This document shows positions 2,971 to 60,621 of a stretch of DNA of 64,000 nucleotides, one piece after another. Both the position numbers and the translations under genes were made by a program. This stretch comes from an uncultured Gammaproteobacteria bacterium (GTDB taxonomy: Bacteria > Patescibacteriota > Microgenomatia > UBA1406 > HO2-37-13b): NCBI GenBank assembly GCA_964612595.1, contig CAZTFB010000001.1, forward strand, positions 323,058 to 387,057. Direction: 5' to 3'. The stretch's first letter is position 1, and each line of letters begins with the position of its first letter. The notes under the pieces are model-generated. The model saw only the letters and a list, made by a program, of their open reading frames with translations, ran no database searches and was not told the origin of the DNA.

Positions 2971-4078
2971 TCTCTCTCATAAAAGAGTAATTGTGCGCGT
3001 TGACTTTAATGTCCCCATAAAAAATGGAGTTGTTGAAGATGCTACGCGCATATATGCAGTCAAACCAACCCTAGATCATTTATTGCAGCAACATAATAGG
3101 CTCATTCTCATCTCCTATCTCGGGAGACCAGAAAAGTATGACCCTGCCTATTCACTGAAACCTATCGCACACTCATTGAAAGAGTTATTTCCAGATAAAG
3201 AAATTGTGTTTGTTGCAGATGTGTTAACTGACGACACTCAACTTATAGAACAATCTGAAGATCAGATAATATTGTTAGAGAATATTCGATTTTATCCTCA
3301 GGAAAAAAATAATGACGAAGCTTATGTGTCAAAACTTGCTGGGTATGCAGATTTCTTCGTCAATGACGCTTTCTCTGTTTCGCACAGAAGTGAATCAACA
3401 GTAACTGGTTTACCTAAGTTGTTACCCTCATATGCAGGTTTTCAACTTTTGAAAGAAGTTGATATGTTAAAAAAAGCATTGGGAGGCAAAGGCACACCAA
3501 GAGTAACCATTCTCGGTGGAGCAAAAGTCTCAACAAAGATTCAACTCATTGAAAAGTTTATTGATTCATCAGACCATATTCTTATTGGAGGCGCTCTCGC
3601 AAATACGTTTTTAGCCGCTCAAGGAATTGAAATGGGAGGCAGTTTGTTTGAAAGTACTTATATAGAAGAAGCTCATAAACTTATGAAGCTTGCTGAAAAG
3701 AAGGGATGCCACATGCTACTTCCGATTGATTATGTGCGCGATGATACGTCCATGGCAATTCTTGACATTGGCCCAGCTACGGCACATAAATACGCTGAGA
3801 TACTACATCAAGCACATACAATAATCTGGAATGGCCCGATGGGATTATATGAGGATCCGCGCTATCGAGCTGGGTCCGATACCATTTTTTCTGCAATCGC
3901 CGCTAACCAAAATGCCCTATCTATTATCGGTGGCGGTGATACACTCCTTATTCTAGAGAACAAAACTCCTGAAGAAAAATCGCGCATTTCTCACATATCA
4001 ACAGGGGGTGGAGCGATGCTGGAATATATTGAAAACGGAACACTTCCTGGAATCGAAGCATTGAATTCTTCGAAGTAA
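2948..4078 (+). CDS. pgk: Phosphoglycerate kinase
   Basis: 376-aa ORF with KRVIVRVDFNVP N-terminus and C-terminal STGGGAMLEY motif. Overlaps the fba end by 23 nt. Confidence 0.9.
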   Translation: MQSVDSSNLSHKRVIVRVDFNVPIKNGVVEDATRIYAVKPTLDHLLQQHNRLILISYLGRPEKYDPAYSLKPIAHSLKELFPDKEIVFVADVLTDDTQLIEQSEDQIILLENIRFYPQEKNNDEAYVSKLAGYADFFVNDAFSVSHRSESTVTGLPKLLPSYAGFQLLKEVDMLKKALGGKGTPRVTILGGAKVSTKIQLIEKFIDSSDHILIGGALANTFLAAQGIEMGGSLFESTYIEEAHKLMKLAEKKGCHMLLPIDYVRDDTSMAILDIGPATAHKYAEILHQAHTIIWNGPMGLYEDPRYRAGSDTIFSAIAANQNALSIIGGGDTLLILENKTPEEKSRISHISTGGGAMLEYIENGTLPGIEALNSSK

Positions 4079-28239: not shown

Positions 28240-28524
28240 TTACGTCTTTTCTAAGACACGTTTAGTAACTTTTCCATGCGTTCTAAATGTTCGACTGAGT
28301 GCGAATTCTCCAAGTCTGTGACCAACCATGCCTTCTGAAACGAATACCTCGATAAATTTTCTACCGTCATGTACTGCAAGTTTATGTCCTACAAAATCAG
28401 GTGAAATTTGTGATCTTCGTGCCCATGTTTTAATAACAGAGCGATCTCCTGATTCTTTTTGTTTTGCAATTTTTAGTTGCAATTTTGCATCAATGTATGG
28501 TCCTTTTTTAGTTGATCGTGACAT
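28240..28524 (-). CDS. rpsS: 30S ribosomal protein S19, at a non-canonical position between rpsN and rpsH
   Basis: 94-aa [15 protein letters not shown]...[50 protein letters not shown], an unambiguous uS19 pattern. Confidence 0.9.
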
Positions 28525-33745: not shown

Positions 33746-34561
33746 TTATTTTTCAACTTCTTCTGTAACTTTAGGCTCATCAGTTGTCACTTCTGGTTCA
33801 GCTACCATTTCTTTTTCAACTTGGACTTCAGGTTCAGCTTGAACTTCTTCTACCACCTCGACTTCTTCAATTGCAGGCATTGCAACGGCATTCGCTGATG
33901 CAATGGTAATAAGGGTATCTTTGGCTCCTGGGATAAGGCCTTTAATAAGCAAGCCATCCTCAAGGACATCGGTCACTAATAGGTTTTTTACCGTTGTCAT
34001 ATCAAATCCCATACGTCCTGCCATTCTTTTACCTTTATATACACGACCAGGAGTAGTACCTTGTCCAATGGATCCAGGTGCTCTCTCACGATCAGATTGG
34101 CCATGTGTTCGGGGGCCACCTGCAAACTTATGTCGTTTCACAACACCTTGGAATCCTTTACCTTTTGACTTTCCGGCCACTGTTACGAGGTCGCCTTTTG
34201 CAAAATGTGAAGATGGGACCTCGTCACCAACCATAAATGTTGTTTCGCCGACTTTCAGTCCTTTTTTCTTACCGTCCTCGACAAGCTCTGCTGTTGCAAT
34301 GCGAACTTCCTTTAAAAAACGAAGCGGGGCTTTTACCCCCGCTTTTTTTAATATTCCTTGTGTTGGCTTGGAAATATTTTTTATATTCTTAACCTTTCCA
34401 AATGCAAGCTGAATTCCCCAGTAACCATGTTTATCCATAGTTCTCACATTCACCACGTGACATGGACTTGTTTTCACAAACGTTACCGGCATGCGATCTC
34501 CTCCATCGGAAAATACCTGTGAAGTACTACCCTTTGTACCGAGAATGAACTTGGCGATCAT
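33746..34561 (-). CDS. rplC: 50S ribosomal protein L3 with an acidic C-terminal tail of about 60 aa
   Basis: 271-aa ORF with FKGKGFQGVVKRHKFAGGPRTHGQS. The tail is EEVEVVEEVQAEPEVQVEKEMVAEPEVTTDEPKVTEEVEK. Confidence 0.9.
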   Translation of the reverse strand: MIAKFILGTKGSTSQVFSDGGDRMPVTFVKTSPCHVVNVRTMDKHGYWGIQLAFGKVKNIKNISKPTQGILKKAGVKAPLRFLKEVRIATAELVEDGKKKGLKVGETTFMVGDEVPSSHFAKGDLVTVAGKSKGKGFQGVVKRHKFAGGPRTHGQSDRERAPGSIGQGTTPGRVYKGKRMAGRMGFDMTTVKNLLVTDVLEDGLLIKGLIPGAKDTLITIASANAVAMPAIEEVEVVEEVQAEPEVQVEKEMVAEPEVTTDEPKVTEEVEK

Positions 34562-34668
34562 AGACTTTTTTTAAAACAAAAAACCCCAGATTGGGGCTTT
34601 TAAGAAGCGTGTCCAATCTGTTGCTGCTATGTACAAAATGCTGAGTGTTGCATTAGGCAAAACATGCA
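34562..34668 (-). promoter_or_regulatory. rplC leader with an alternative (antiterminator) pairing and a 12-codon uORF
   Basis: CAGAUUGG (34620-34613) is the exact complement of CCAAUCUG (34594-34587) inside the terminator. The uORF ATG at 34665 to TAG at 34627 encodes MFCLMQHSAFCT. Confidence 0.45.
34573..34600 (-). terminator. Intrinsic terminator-like hairpin 20 nt upstream of the rplC ATG (candidate attenuator)
   Basis: Minus-strand RNA reads AAAAGCCCCA-AUC-UGGGGUUUUUUGUUUU. The core stem is 34596-34592 / 34588-34584, and A/U pairs can extend it. Confidence 0.6.
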
Positions 34669-34674
34669 AACTGC

Positions 34675-34703
34675 ATTATATAATAACTTGTAATACAAGT
34701 CAA
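34675..34703 (-). promoter_or_regulatory. Consensus-like sigma70 promoter for the rplC...rpsI unit, overlapping the ATPase stop codon
   Basis: Minus strand: TTGACT (34703-34698), 17-nt spacer, TATAAT (34680-34675). Confidence 0.6.
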
Positions 34704-37096
34704 CGCACATCTAACTTAAAGTAGCGCATTATCGCTTTCAATCCTTCCACTAGGAAACAAACCGCTATTACTCCTACAACGATGTATAACCACTCCGATA
34801 CTAGCAGAGGTACAGTGTTGATAATAAACTGCAATGATGTGAGTTGAATAACAAAAAGTTGGATTAATACACCCACGCTCACAGCCATCAGAAGAGGAAG
34901 GTTGTTGAACGGGGATACTTTCCATATTGGTAATAACAACGTCCTCACAGGAAAGATAATAAACATCGTTGAAAGGGCAATATAACTAAATACTGCGGTA
35001 CGAGCAACCTCAAGAGAAGAAACATCTAAGAAATGAGTATATATCAAGAGTCCAATACTGCCAATAATAATGCTTACACATAAGGTAAATGCCAAAATAG
35101 GAAGACTAAAAAGAGCACTTTGTGATCTTGGAAAGTTTCGCGCTCGAGAAACATCGTGAGGTTCAAATGTGAGAGCAAGAGCAGGAAGTCCATCGGTAAT
35201 TATATTGATCCATAAAATCTGAGCAGCAGTCAGTGCGACAGGTAACCCCATAAGAATGGTCCCTACTACAAGCATAATCTGACTCAAACTATCTGATAAC
35301 AAGTAAAGTATGACTTTTTGAATATTATCAAAGATTCCCCTGCCTTCTTGTACCGCCTGCACTATAGTTCTAAAATTTGAGTCAAGTAGGACCATGTCTG
35401 CTGTCTCTTTTGCCACATCAGATGCTTCACCAACCACTACCCCCAAATGCGAGGCTTTAAGGGCTAATGCATCGTTAACACCATCGCCAATGAGGGCAAC
35501 GATTTCACCTCGTTTTTGCAATGCTTCCACAAGCTGAAGTTTTTGTTGTGGAGATACTCTTGCACAGATATCTACAGTACTAATACGTTCTAATACTTCC
35601 TTATCCGTCATTTTATCTAATTCTTCACCAGTTACTGCAATTATTTCCCTATCATGTCCGTTTGTAACCTGTCGCCACACTGCTTCAGCAGTACCAATAT
35701 AGTCTCCAGTTATCATGACGACTCGAATACCGGCACGAAAACAATCTTCAAATACTTTTACCAAACCTTTTCTTACTGGATCTTCAATGGCAATAAGGCC
35801 AATCCATGTATATTTAGTGTGTTTTGGACTTTTTTTTGCAAAAGCTATAATGCGTAATCCTTTCTTTGACCATTCGGCGACTTGATCTAGAATTTTCTTC
35901 TTCTCTGAACCGGTAATTTTTGCGAATTTTAATACAACTTCGGGGGCACCTTTTAGATACGTCGTGTGGTCTATTGTCACACTCATATATTTGTTGATAC
36001 TATCGAAGGGGACCTCTTTTTGACGTAAAATGTGTTTGTTGCGCGCTTCAGGATCAACATTATTTTTCGATACCCAATCCCATAACGCAAACTCGATTGG
36101 ATCATCAAGGTTATTAGCATAACAGGCAACATCAAGTGCATCGTCTAAATTTTTGATCTGCGTTTCAGTGACACGCATGATACCTTCGGTCAATGTGCCT
36201 GTTTTGTCTGTGGCAATTACAGTAACAGATCCTAATGCTTCAGCTGCAACGAGTCTTCGAACTAATGCCTTTTTCTTTAAGATGCGTTGCATACCAAGGG
36301 ATAAGATAACCGTTAAAGAGATGGTGAGCCCTTCTGGAATTGCAGATACTGCCAGTGCAACTGATGTTACAAACATGTTACGAAATGGTTGACCTTGAAG
36401 TATGCCAATAATGAATACACAGAGTGAGATACCTAACACTGCAAAAGCTATGGCCTTACCTAACGAATGAATGCGTACCTGAAGTGGTGTGAGTGTTTCC
36501 TTTGTCTCAGATAACTGCTCAGCAATCGAACCCATTTTTGTTGATACGCCTGTTGCCGTTACCTTAAATAATGCCCTCCCTGTAACAACCGTCGTCCCCA
36601 TATACACCATATCCTTGTCTCTTTTACGCACTGCAACACTCTCTCCAGTTAGTATAGACTCATTAGTGGAAAGCTGCACTGATTCAATTAAGATACCATC
36701 AGCAGGTACTTTGTCGCCTTGGTGCAACACCACAATATCTTCTGGAACCACAAGTTGTACCGGAATTTTTAGAAGATCACCACTCCTATATACCTTTGCA
36801 ACTGGCTGGAGAATATTCTTCAATGCGTTGAGTGCATTCTCTGCTTTGGTCTCTTGGTAATAGCCAAGGAGCGTATTTATAAAGACCGCCATGAATATTA
36901 TCAAGGCGTCTGTATAGTCACTTAATAAATAGGTAATAACACCTGCTATAACAAGAATGTAAATGAGAGGAGAGGTGAATTGACGAGTAAAATGAGAAAG
37001 GGCAGACAATTTTTTCTTTGCGGGGAGTTTATTTTCACCAAATGCCTGAAGTTGTTTCTGTGCGTAGTCTCTTGTCAGTCCTCTATGCTCTATCAT
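34700..37096 (-). CDS. Cation-transporting P-type ATPase (P2/Ca2+-type motifs)
   Basis: 798-aa ORF with TGES, DKTGTLT, PEGL, MITGD and GDGVNDALALK motifs and about 10 TM segments. Confidence 0.85.
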   Translation of the reverse strand: MIEHRGLTRDYAQKQLQAFGENKLPAKKKLSALSHFTRQFTSPLIYILVIAGVITYLLSDYTDALIIFMAVFINTLLGYYQETKAENALNALKNILQPVAKVYRSGDLLKIPVQLVVPEDIVVLHQGDKVPADGILIESVQLSTNESILTGESVAVRKRDKDMVYMGTTVVTGRALFKVTATGVSTKMGSIAEQLSETKETLTPLQVRIHSLGKAIAFAVLGISLCVFIIGILQGQPFRNMFVTSVALAVSAIPEGLTISLTVILSLGMQRILKKKALVRRLVAAEALGSVTVIATDKTGTLTEGIMRVTETQIKNLDDALDVACYANNLDDPIEFALWDWVSKNNVDPEARNKHILRQKEVPFDSINKYMSVTIDHTTYLKGAPEVVLKFAKITGSEKKKILDQVAEWSKKGLRIIAFAKKSPKHTKYTWIGLIAIEDPVRKGLVKVFEDCFRAGIRVVMITGDYIGTAEAVWRQVTNGHDREIIAVTGEELDKMTDKEVLERISTVDICARVSPQQKLQLVEALQKRGEIVALIGDGVNDALALKASHLGVVVGEASDVAKETADMVLLDSNFRTIVQAVQEGRGIFDNIQKVILYLLSDSLSQIMLVVGTILMGLPVALTAAQILWINIITDGLPALALTFEPHDVSRARNFPRSQSALFSLPILAFTLCVSIIIGSIGLLIYTHFLDVSSLEVARTAVFSYIALSTMFIIFPVRTLLLPIWKVSPFNNLPLLMAVSVGVLIQLFVIQLTSLQFIINTVPLLVSEWLYIVVGVIAVCFLVEGLKAIMRYFKLDVR

Positions 37097-37770: not shown

Positions 37771-37798
37771 ATCAGCCCCGACGGTAGTCGGGGCTGAT
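37771..37798 (-). terminator. 12-bp GC-rich stem-loop between tuf and rpsJ (terminator/attenuator or processing/stability element)
   Basis: ATCAGCCCCGAC-GGTA-GTCGGGGCTGAT, a perfect inverted repeat. There is no clean U-tract on either strand. Confidence 0.4.
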
Positions 37799-60474: not shown

Positions 60475-60518
60475 TAGAAGTTTTATTCCAACAAATTTTA
60501 ACTATATATAACAAATAA

Positions 60519-60540
60519 CAAGGCCGCCACAACGGCCTTG
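60519..60540 (-). terminator. Terminator-like hairpin in the rpoB leader (ytxH terminator and/or rpoB attenuator)
   Basis: Minus-strand RNA reads CAAGGCCG-UUGUGG-CGGCCUUG followed by UUAUUUGUUAU. It lies 45 nt upstream of the rpoB ATG. Confidence 0.55.
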
Positions 60541-60592
60541 GTTTAATTATCCTCGGGCTTTTTAGAGATCAACTATCATTCGATGTAGTGGT

Positions 60593-60621
60593 ACTATACT
60601 AAACTACGTTCAGAAAGTCAA
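60593..60621 (-). promoter_or_regulatory. Consensus-like promoter for rpoB-rpoC-rpsL-rpsG-fusA
   Basis: Minus strand: TTGACT (60621-60616), 17-nt spacer, TATAGT (60598-60593). It lies immediately after the ytxH-like stop. Confidence 0.55.

Follow-up and report, generated by a model that had tools for sequence, protein, structure and literature searches.

A promoter, a 12-codon mini-gene, and a probable transcription switch ahead of the ribosomal-protein gene rplC, in a layout kept in more than 100 related species

We describe a short leader that precedes rplC, the gene for ribosomal protein L3, in a 64,000-nt stretch of contig CAZTFB010000001.1 (positions 323,058 to 387,057; hereafter, the window). 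As judged from sequence comparison, the element is very probably a regulated transcription attenuator. It consists of a promoter, a 12-codon mini-gene (the upstream open reading frame, ORF), and a terminator/antiterminator switch, and this layout is kept in more than 100 related species, where it probably represents a novel means of adjusting ribosome production to translation. The relatives of the L3 protein place the source organism in the Microgenomates group of the Candidate Phyla Radiation (CPR), near Roizmanbacteria. Our preferred reading, which we hold with only a little more belief than doubt, is that of a ribosome-mediated attenuator that gates the rplC-rpsI operon through a switch at a terminator before the gene (T1) and a second, terminator-like hairpin within it (T2). 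An initial annotation of this DNA had described the promoter and the switch; the upstream ORF and the hairpin inside rplC were absent from it. All element coordinates are in window numbering on the minus strand, and the features are as follows.

34698 to 34703, minus strand: -35 hexamer TTGACT, overlapping the TGA stop codon of the ATPase gene (34700 to 34702)
34675 to 34680, minus strand: -10 hexamer TATAAT, separated from the -35 hexamer by a 17-nt spacer
34622 to 34668, minus strand: 5' hairpin domain, overlapping the upstream ORF; the AUG region pairs with ACAU-GCA
34627 to 34665, minus strand: short upstream ORF, with its ATG at 34665-34663, 12 codons (MFCLMQHSAFCT), and a UAG stop at 34629-34627
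34613 to 34620, minus strand: antiterminator 5' arm CAGAUUGG, the exact reverse complement of CCAAUCUG
34587 to 34594, minus strand: antiterminator target CCAAUCUG, comprising the T1 loop with the 3 left-arm nucleotides before it and the 2 right-arm nucleotides after it
34573 to 34601, minus strand: predicted intrinsic terminator T1, with a 10-bp stem, a 3-nt loop, and a U-rich tail that ends 12 nt before the rplC ATG
34314 to 34344, minus strand: T2, a terminator-like hairpin followed by a U-run, with the stem AAGCGGGG/CCCCGCUU (34344-34322), the loop GUAAAAG, and then CGUUUUUU

The switch ahead of rplC and its conservation

The promoter lies across the ATPase stop codon, correct to the base as first annotated (34703-34675), and predicts a transcription start near 34668-34667. 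It is the best sigma-70 match in 20 kb, agreeing at 11 of 12 positions, in a region where promoter-like sites as a class are not enriched (36 found against 48.6 expected). The terminator that had been placed before rplC is also there, at 34601-34573. Its 5' arm AAAAGCCCCA (34601-34592), AUC loop (34591-34589), and 3' arm UGGGGUUUUU (34588-34579) are followed by the tail UUUUUUGUUUU, which reaches 34573. The stem contains four G-C pairs and the hairpin is worth -11.4 kcal/mol, so that T1 has the G+C-rich hairpin and U-tract of an intrinsic terminator. It is the sole convincing intergenic terminator in the 64-kb window. Terminator-like matches elsewhere occur near shuffle level (18 against 13.9 expected, 14 against 13.4, and 18 against 12.6), and the two best minus-strand matches in a 20-kb scan are T1 and the hairpin inside rplC.

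The complementarity of CAGAUUGG (34620-34613) to CCAAUCUG (34594-34587), which the initial annotation had pointed out, is exact, and its claim that the two helices are mutually exclusive is supported by the target positions that they share. In the antiterminator fold, an inner helix of GCUU (34608-34605) with AAGC (34599-34596) occupies still more of the T1 left arm. A folding comparison suggested along with the annotation was run on 34668-34562. The antiterminator has the lowest energy, -27.9 kcal/mol (z = -2.1), and the forced terminator conformer reaches -25.7 kcal/mol, which puts the two states within about 2 kcal/mol of each other. Taken by itself, the window sequence is weak evidence, since 4% of its shuffles also contain an 8-nt complement to the terminator (P = 0.04). 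The switch exceeds chance because of the comparative evidence, not because of the window sequence alone.

For this comparison, 160 Microgenomates loci around L3 genes were collected from genome and metagenome contigs and yielded 144 distinct leaders. The promoter, terminator, and arm detectors were simple custom scripts, the shuffle controls overstate significance because of kinship among the related sequences, and the covariance-model E-values are rough. A hairpin with a U-run stands just before the rplC ATG in 140 of the 144 leaders, and a promoter matching at least 9 of 12 positions, usually TTGAC-17-TATAAT, lies upstream of the terminator in 115. Most leaders also have, at transcript positions 40-50, a segment able to pair with the terminator loop and 3' arm; it was significant against shuffles (P ≤ 0.05) in 57% of 65 leaders. 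The paired sequences are clade-specific: C[A/G]GAUUGG with CCAAUCUG in Roizmanbacteria-type leaders (the window's clade), CGGAUU with AAUCCG in Gottesmanbacteria-type leaders, UGGCUACAUAG with CUAUGUGGUCG in Levybacteria-type leaders, and further pairs in other clades.

The covariation check proposed with the initial annotation was positive. In an alignment of 51 sequences, the 6-bp core of the antiterminator is 98% paired, with one pair running through the series A-U (22), G-U (16), and G-C (11), and no shuffle reached the observed covariation score. Five pairs of the terminator stem have changed on both sides. A covariance model built from the same alignment found one match per locus, always upstream of rplC, and its single match in the window lies at 34575-34624. 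The recurrence of the arm with a different sequence in each clade, together with the compensatory changes, makes regulated read-through, as the initial annotation had proposed, well supported. The location between promoter and first gene and the alternative helix that uses part of the terminator are those of an attenuator.

Only two close relatives, L001 and L081, were found in the L3 scan of genome and metagenome contigs (83-84% L3 identity), which limits fine-scale covariation in the window's own lineage to a few substitutions. The leader is identical to that of L001 at 127 of 141 positions (90%), compared with 36-55% identity at 4-fold degenerate sites in the flanking genes, so it is under strong purifying selection. 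The three substitutions relative to L001 in the 5' hairpin region all fall at unpaired positions. As a separate observation, the stretch from the terminator to the rplC ATG includes a conserved GUCCAUUCGGCAGGCUCAGGAU segment in some Levybacteria-type leaders.

The upstream reading frame and the hairpin inside rplC

The ATG of the upstream ORF lies 9 nt after TATAAT, and the ORF is therefore predicted to be leaderless or nearly so. This spacing nearly matches that of the genome's other -10-like hexamers (5-9 nt). No Shine-Dalgarno motifs were found upstream of genes in the whole window, and a -10-like hexamer stands 5-9 nt before the ATG at 12 of 66 gene starts, including those at 37096, 40397, 41754, 46348, 8201, 910, and 46411, which suggests that mRNAs beginning at the start codon are common here.

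The same geometry recurs across the leaders. An ATG follows the -10 hexamer by 5-19 nt in 98 of 112 leaders (shuffles: mean 30, maximum 41), and ATG is the commonest 3-mer in the segment after the -10, being present in 102 of 112 leaders as against 12 of 112 in a control segment. The ORF is 10-13 codons long in 66% of cases (14% in shuffles), with a sharp peak at 11, and it always stops upstream of the terminator, at a median of 29 nt before it. Its peptides are not conserved across leaders (MFCLMPHSAFST in L001), so the act of translation, rather than its product, would matter. The leader peptides share no regulatory codon run of the kind that marks a leader-peptide attenuator, and amino-acid sensing was rejected on this ground. 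The Phe-rich ORF starts of one clade coincide with the U-rich arm of a hairpin.

The position of the stop codon is also constrained. In Levybacteria-type leaders it falls inside the antiterminator arm, and 9 of 10 distinct leaders keep it in the frame of the ATG (P = 3.6 × 10−4), despite length differences of 3 nt. In the window's clade, the median distance from the first base of the stop to the start of the core arm is 10 nt (9 nt in the window itself), with 70% of distances at 12 nt or less and some up to 23 nt; the three Gottesmanbacteria-type leaders measured gave 9-17 nt. With its usual footprint, a ribosome holding the stop codon in the A site encloses about half of such an arm, and by this estimate about 4 of the 8 arm nucleotides in the window would sit in the mRNA channel at the stop. 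The hairpin in the ORF region varies in sequence and keeps its structure, with a mean z of -1.41 against shuffles in Roizmanbacteria-type leaders.

Levybacteria-type leaders show two further regularities. Their ORF has the consensus M-I-x-R-L-E-V-x-L-T-T (e.g. L037, about 690-806, and L053, about 3300-3417), and a conserved GGAGG lies 5-7 nt before an in-frame UUG. The frame of the GGAGG-UUG relative to the ATG shifts in two of these leaders, so it behaves as a nucleotide motif.

The second hairpin, T2, begins 218 nt into rplC and spans codons 73-83 (K-A-G-V-K-A-P-L-R-F-L). It is kept in 36 of 39 loci of the window's clade. Among 143 rplC genes, a hairpin with a U-run starts at nt 200-240 in 50, compared with 0-4 in each other 40-nt bin. 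Its codons are nearly fixed on choices that are rare elsewhere in rplC, which served as the background: GCG in 35 of 36 (background 15%), GGG in 30 of 36 (8%), CCG in 35 of 35 (20%), and CGT in 30 of 32 (13%). The helix is 98% paired, and three of its pairs have undergone compensatory changes, some of which alter the amino acid (P to Q, T to I, and T to N). These patterns indicate that T2 is kept by forced codon choice. A hairpin with a U-run in rplD (33464-33446) was considered as a further conserved element and rejected because it is not conserved; it serves as a negative control for T2.

By analogy, T2 would form only when no ribosome is close behind the polymerase. Translation is reported to suppress intrinsic terminators inside genes when the ribosome follows closely (PMC4824070). 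T2 shares with those terminators its hairpin and U-run in a translated region, and differs from them in being naturally conserved, with forced codons and a fixed place in the first gene of an operon.

Proposed mechanism and competing explanations

In our preferred reading, RNA polymerase would start at the promoter overlapping the ATPase stop codon and transcribe a leader of about 105 nt with two possible folds. In the ON fold, CAGAUUGG would pair with CCAAUCUG and the polymerase would continue into rplC; in the OFF fold, the hairpin at 34601-34579 and its U-tract would end transcription 12-17 nt before the gene. The antiterminator is slightly favored in naked RNA and is transcribed first, so the default state would be ON. 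A ribosome that translates the ORF to its UAG (34629-34627) would cover the mRNA to about 34617, and because half of the antiterminator arm would be covered, T1 would form instead. The ribosomal-protein genes would thus be transcribed less when translation capacity is high, and more when the ORF is translated slowly or not at all. Polymerases that pass T1 would meet T2, where transcription of an untranslated rplC would end. The ORF geometry is the only leader feature common to clades whose leader RNA is otherwise unrelated, which points to the ribosome as the sensor. On this model, loss of ORF translation would raise read-through, and changing the arm from CAGAUUGG to CAGAAAGG together with compensating changes in the terminator loop would restore it.

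Several points weigh against a ribosome-mediated attenuator. A few leaders (L018, L097, and L059) have no ATG. The ORF overlaps a conserved hairpin, so part of the constraint on its sequence is RNA structure, and the stop lies 16-23 nt from the arm in some leaders of the window's clade and 9-17 nt from it in the three Gottesmanbacteria-type leaders, so direct occlusion cannot be general. The switch core, C[A/G]GAUUGG with CCCCAAUCUGGGG, hardly varies among 43 leaders, even at loop positions with a single partner, and this hints at an extra sequence-specific factor. T1 and T2 have opposite signs, since less translation would give more read-through at the one and less at the other, and the two are compatible only under extra assumptions. 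Masking the ribosome footprint yields the terminator fold partly by construction, and the transcription start, the translation of the ORF, and termination are themselves predictions. The sign of the response is uncertain; in the modeled window RNA, the free state is the antiterminator fold and the stop position fits occlusion.

A more ambitious version, which we find doubtful, would make the ribosome itself the regulator through two successive checkpoints, T1 and T2, with no repressor protein required. The leaderless 10-13-codon ORF would gauge initiation and translation at a 5'-terminal AUG and switch T1 on, and T2 would abort polymerases that have no ribosome translating rplC behind them. 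If true, bacteria with minimal genomes would here control ribosome synthesis through a circuit that senses ribosomes directly.

Alternatively, a ribosomal protein encoded in the operon (L4, L3, or another) might bind the leader, at the 5' hairpin, the antiterminator arm, or the terminator hairpin, and block the antiterminator, so that transcription ends at T1. We think this unlikely, though far from fanciful. The default-ON, balanced switch is the design of known protein-controlled ribosomal leaders such as that of Bacillus subtilis rplJL (PMC4538822), and the near-invariance of the switch core in 43 leaders, even at single-partner positions, also suits a binding protein. The same protein may block translation of rplC, with T2 then ending the operon, and it could act alongside the upstream ORF; the role that suits T2 best is that of a polarity device working downstream of a translational repressor. 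A weak lead toward such a protein is the identity between E. coli 16S rRNA 1303-1310(11), in the head domain, and the arm in its G-variant form, CGGAUUGG(A). The 16S helix 42 sequence concerned, CGGAUUGGA (E. coli rrsH, L161, 1303-1311), is the G-variant arm plus the following A, and the match may be chance. S19, S3, and S14, which the operon encodes, bind the 16S head domain. Against this lead, the identity covers only 8-10 nt, was found after several patterns, and concerns E. coli rRNA only; the motif is not present in the other leader types, and the E. coli 23S rRNA gave no match to the arm. Neither the window nor the 15 related loci scanned match a ribosomal leader in Rfam. Because ribosomal proteins bind conserved rRNA sites, a mimic would be expected to look alike in all clades; the leader and switch sequences are unrelated between clades, which share the ORF geometry instead, and this argues against a conserved rRNA mimic.

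Two further explanations seem to us much less probable. It is very unlikely that the ORF acts with the opposite sign, its translation promoting read-through, as a stalled ribosome does in the trp attenuator, by melting a 5' structure that sequesters the arm. This would give T1 and T2 the same sign (high translation leading to ON), and the arm does pair inside the ORF in about one-third of leaders when the transcript ends before the terminator (e.g. L010). In the window and about two-thirds of leaders, however, the arm is not paired with the ORF region. The window's 5' hairpin is self-contained and leaves the arm free, the free RNA takes the antiterminator fold, and a stop codon beside or inside the arm fits occlusion. 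A consistent anti-antiterminator, formed by the arm and an ORF segment, was rejected as a general feature, being found in about one-third of leaders and not in the window.

Also very unlikely is a constitutive, partly efficient terminator with no sensor, in which the 8-mer and the ORF are non-regulatory and the hairpin ends read-in from the upstream unit (tuf-rpsJ or, in the window, the ATPase gene) and sets a fixed, damped output of the rplC promoter. In the window and in typical relatives, transcripts reading in from upstream do meet no terminator before T1, the 8-nt complement in the window alone reaches only P = 0.04, and about half of the leaders have the terminator as the equilibrium fold of their free RNA. 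A plain insulator would place the terminator first, however, and 115 of 144 leaders have the promoter first. Nor would it account for a complementary arm kept through sequence turnover and compensatory change, for an ATG, ORF length, and stop position conserved far above chance, or for strong purifying selection on the whole leader.

Known leaders, gene context, and significance

Rfam contains no family that matches the whole window or the 15 related loci at the gathering threshold. An E-value scan of 34400-34900 returned only weak, terminator-type matches, to the rimP leader (E = 0.64) and the rnk leader (E = 3.6), and the scan for ribosomal-protein leaders suggested with the initial annotation produced no match. 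Eckert and Weinberg described 20 ribosomal leader candidates, of which only an archaeal L4 candidate lies before rplC (PMC7247131). The present element is not among the 20 (PMC7247131), and no description of it was found in the literature searched.

The initial annotation had drawn an analogy to L4-dependent attenuation of the E. coli S10 operon. Nothing found here supports this analogy: there is no Rfam ribosomal leader match, and the leader differs completely between clades. The two do share an intrinsic terminator in the leader shortly before the first gene of a homologous operon, and a mode of control in which transcription ends early, possibly with translation controlled as well. The E. 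coli S10 leader sits before rpsJ; the window element sits before rplC, with rpsJ in another unit, and bears no Rfam similarity to the S10 leader. To our knowledge, the S10 leader has neither an antiterminator alternative nor a leader ORF. By these comparisons, the element occupies the place of the E. coli S10 leader without its testable defining features.

The trpL, hisL, leuL, and pheL attenuators resemble the element in their short leader ORF with a hairpin within it, their mutually exclusive helices, and a stop codon near the antiterminator arm. The window-type leaders differ in having no regulatory codon runs, no conserved peptide, and no consistent 1:2 anti-antiterminator; their ORF lies at or near the 5' end with no Shine-Dalgarno sequence, and they precede a ribosomal-protein operon rather than amino-acid biosynthesis genes. 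Ribosomal-protein leaders with a terminator and antiterminator are found in Firmicutes, the B. subtilis rplJL L10(L12)4 leader (PMC4538822) and the infC L20 leader among them. These likewise have a default antiterminator, an effector that leads to the terminator, and ribosomal-protein genes downstream, and differ in binding a ribosomal protein through an rRNA-like site and in not being known to contain a leader ORF. Leaderless polycysteine short ORFs in mycobacteria are reported to be attenuators that sense cysteine through runs of Cys codons (10.1101/834739). They share with our proposal a leaderless first-cistron ORF whose own translation controls the downstream operon. Unlike them, the present element has no codon run, has a terminator/antiterminator pair, and precedes a ribosomal-protein operon in CPR bacteria.

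The two genes that flank the element are as follows.

33746 to 34561, minus strand: rplC (L3, 271 aa), the first gene of the ribosomal-protein row, with no Shine-Dalgarno sequence
34700 to 37096, minus strand: P-type cation ATPase gene (798 aa, assigned by Pfam), inserted between rpsJ and the rplC control region

On the minus strand, the genes run in the order tuf (39002-37815), rpsJ (37736-37425), a DUF1599 gene, the ATPase gene, rplC, rplD, rplW, rplB, and onward to rplM and rpsI (18976-18524), with about 35 genes in the ribosomal-protein row from rplC down to rpsI. The rplC product, read from the ATG at 34561, starts with MIAKFILGTKGSTSQVF, a normal L3 N-terminus. A further promoter-like site, at 37132-37103, ends 6 nt short of the ATPase ATG and belongs to that gene; no terminator lies between this site and the rplC leader, so upstream transcripts can read in.

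That rpsJ has been split off from rplC, as initially annotated, is right insofar as it lies in a separate transcription unit, with two genes between them in the window. Other genomes of the group share the split. Of 123 relatives' loci, 122 have 72 nt or more between rpsJ and rplC (median gap 198 nt), which together with the control region before rplC makes this a group-wide trait. It exceeds 300 nt in 51 of the 123 loci, indicating inserted genes and marking the boundary as an insertion hotspot. The ATPase insertion is the same in L001 and L081. More broadly, a P-type ATPase gene stands beside the rplC control region in L001, L002, L026, L081, and L082, once on the opposite strand.

The initial statement that no other promoter serves the genes from rplC to rpsI is inaccurate: a strong promoter-like site lies at 22642-22615 on the minus strand (TTGACA-16-TATAGT, 11 of 12 positions), at the end of the methionine aminopeptidase gene. 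The gene row is thus probably not one transcription unit. The short ORFs downstream of this site, before rpsM, are presumably infA-rpmJ. Within the row, rpsS (S19; 28240-28524, minus strand) lies between the L5 gene and rpsH (S8), not between rplB and rplV; L2 (32752-31985) is followed directly by L22 (31976-31542). The gap at 28807-28524, next to the L5 gene, we take to contain rpsN (S14). The 3' end of rplC (33746-33900, minus strand) encodes some 50 C-terminal residues that form an acidic tail with abundant Glu, Val, and Pro (…EEVEVVEEVQAEPEVQVEKEM…); comparable tails of different sequence occur in L001 and L081.

Two other intergenic regions in the window attracted attention. Upstream of rpoB (60475-60620, minus strand), TTGACT-17-TATAGT is followed 13 nt later by an ATG that opens a 5-codon ORF (MIVDL*), and the leader contains the hairpin CAAGGCCGU-UGUG-GCGGCCUUG with a weak U-rich tail. 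It could have been a second attenuator of the same style and was set aside, as its fold is no better than shuffles (z = -0.76) and its U-tract is weak. The tuf-rpsJ spacer (37773-37796, minus strand) holds a perfect 10-bp G+C-rich hairpin, CAGCCCCGAC-UACC-GUCGGGGCUG, with no U-tract. Hairpins in this spacer are often strong in relatives, but they are species-specific and unrelated, and were rejected as a conserved element. In many relatives, GCAC(N)UUUAAA occurs just before the rpsJ ATG.

CPR bacteria (Patescibacteria) have tiny genomes and few regulators with which to match ribosomal-protein synthesis to need. The element described here occurs in more than 100 species, is not in Rfam, and has a simple anatomy in front of a row of about 35 genes; the leader data are a ready seed alignment for a new RNA family. 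The placement of rpsJ and rplC in separate transcription units across the group matters for operon annotation. At T2, in the gene of a universal ribosomal protein, RNA structure overrides the choice of codons and even of amino acids. Should the upstream ORF prove to be the sensor, the element would be, within the literature searched, the first ribosome-mediated attenuation of a ribosomal-protein operon, and it would link leaderless initiation to ribosome homeostasis.

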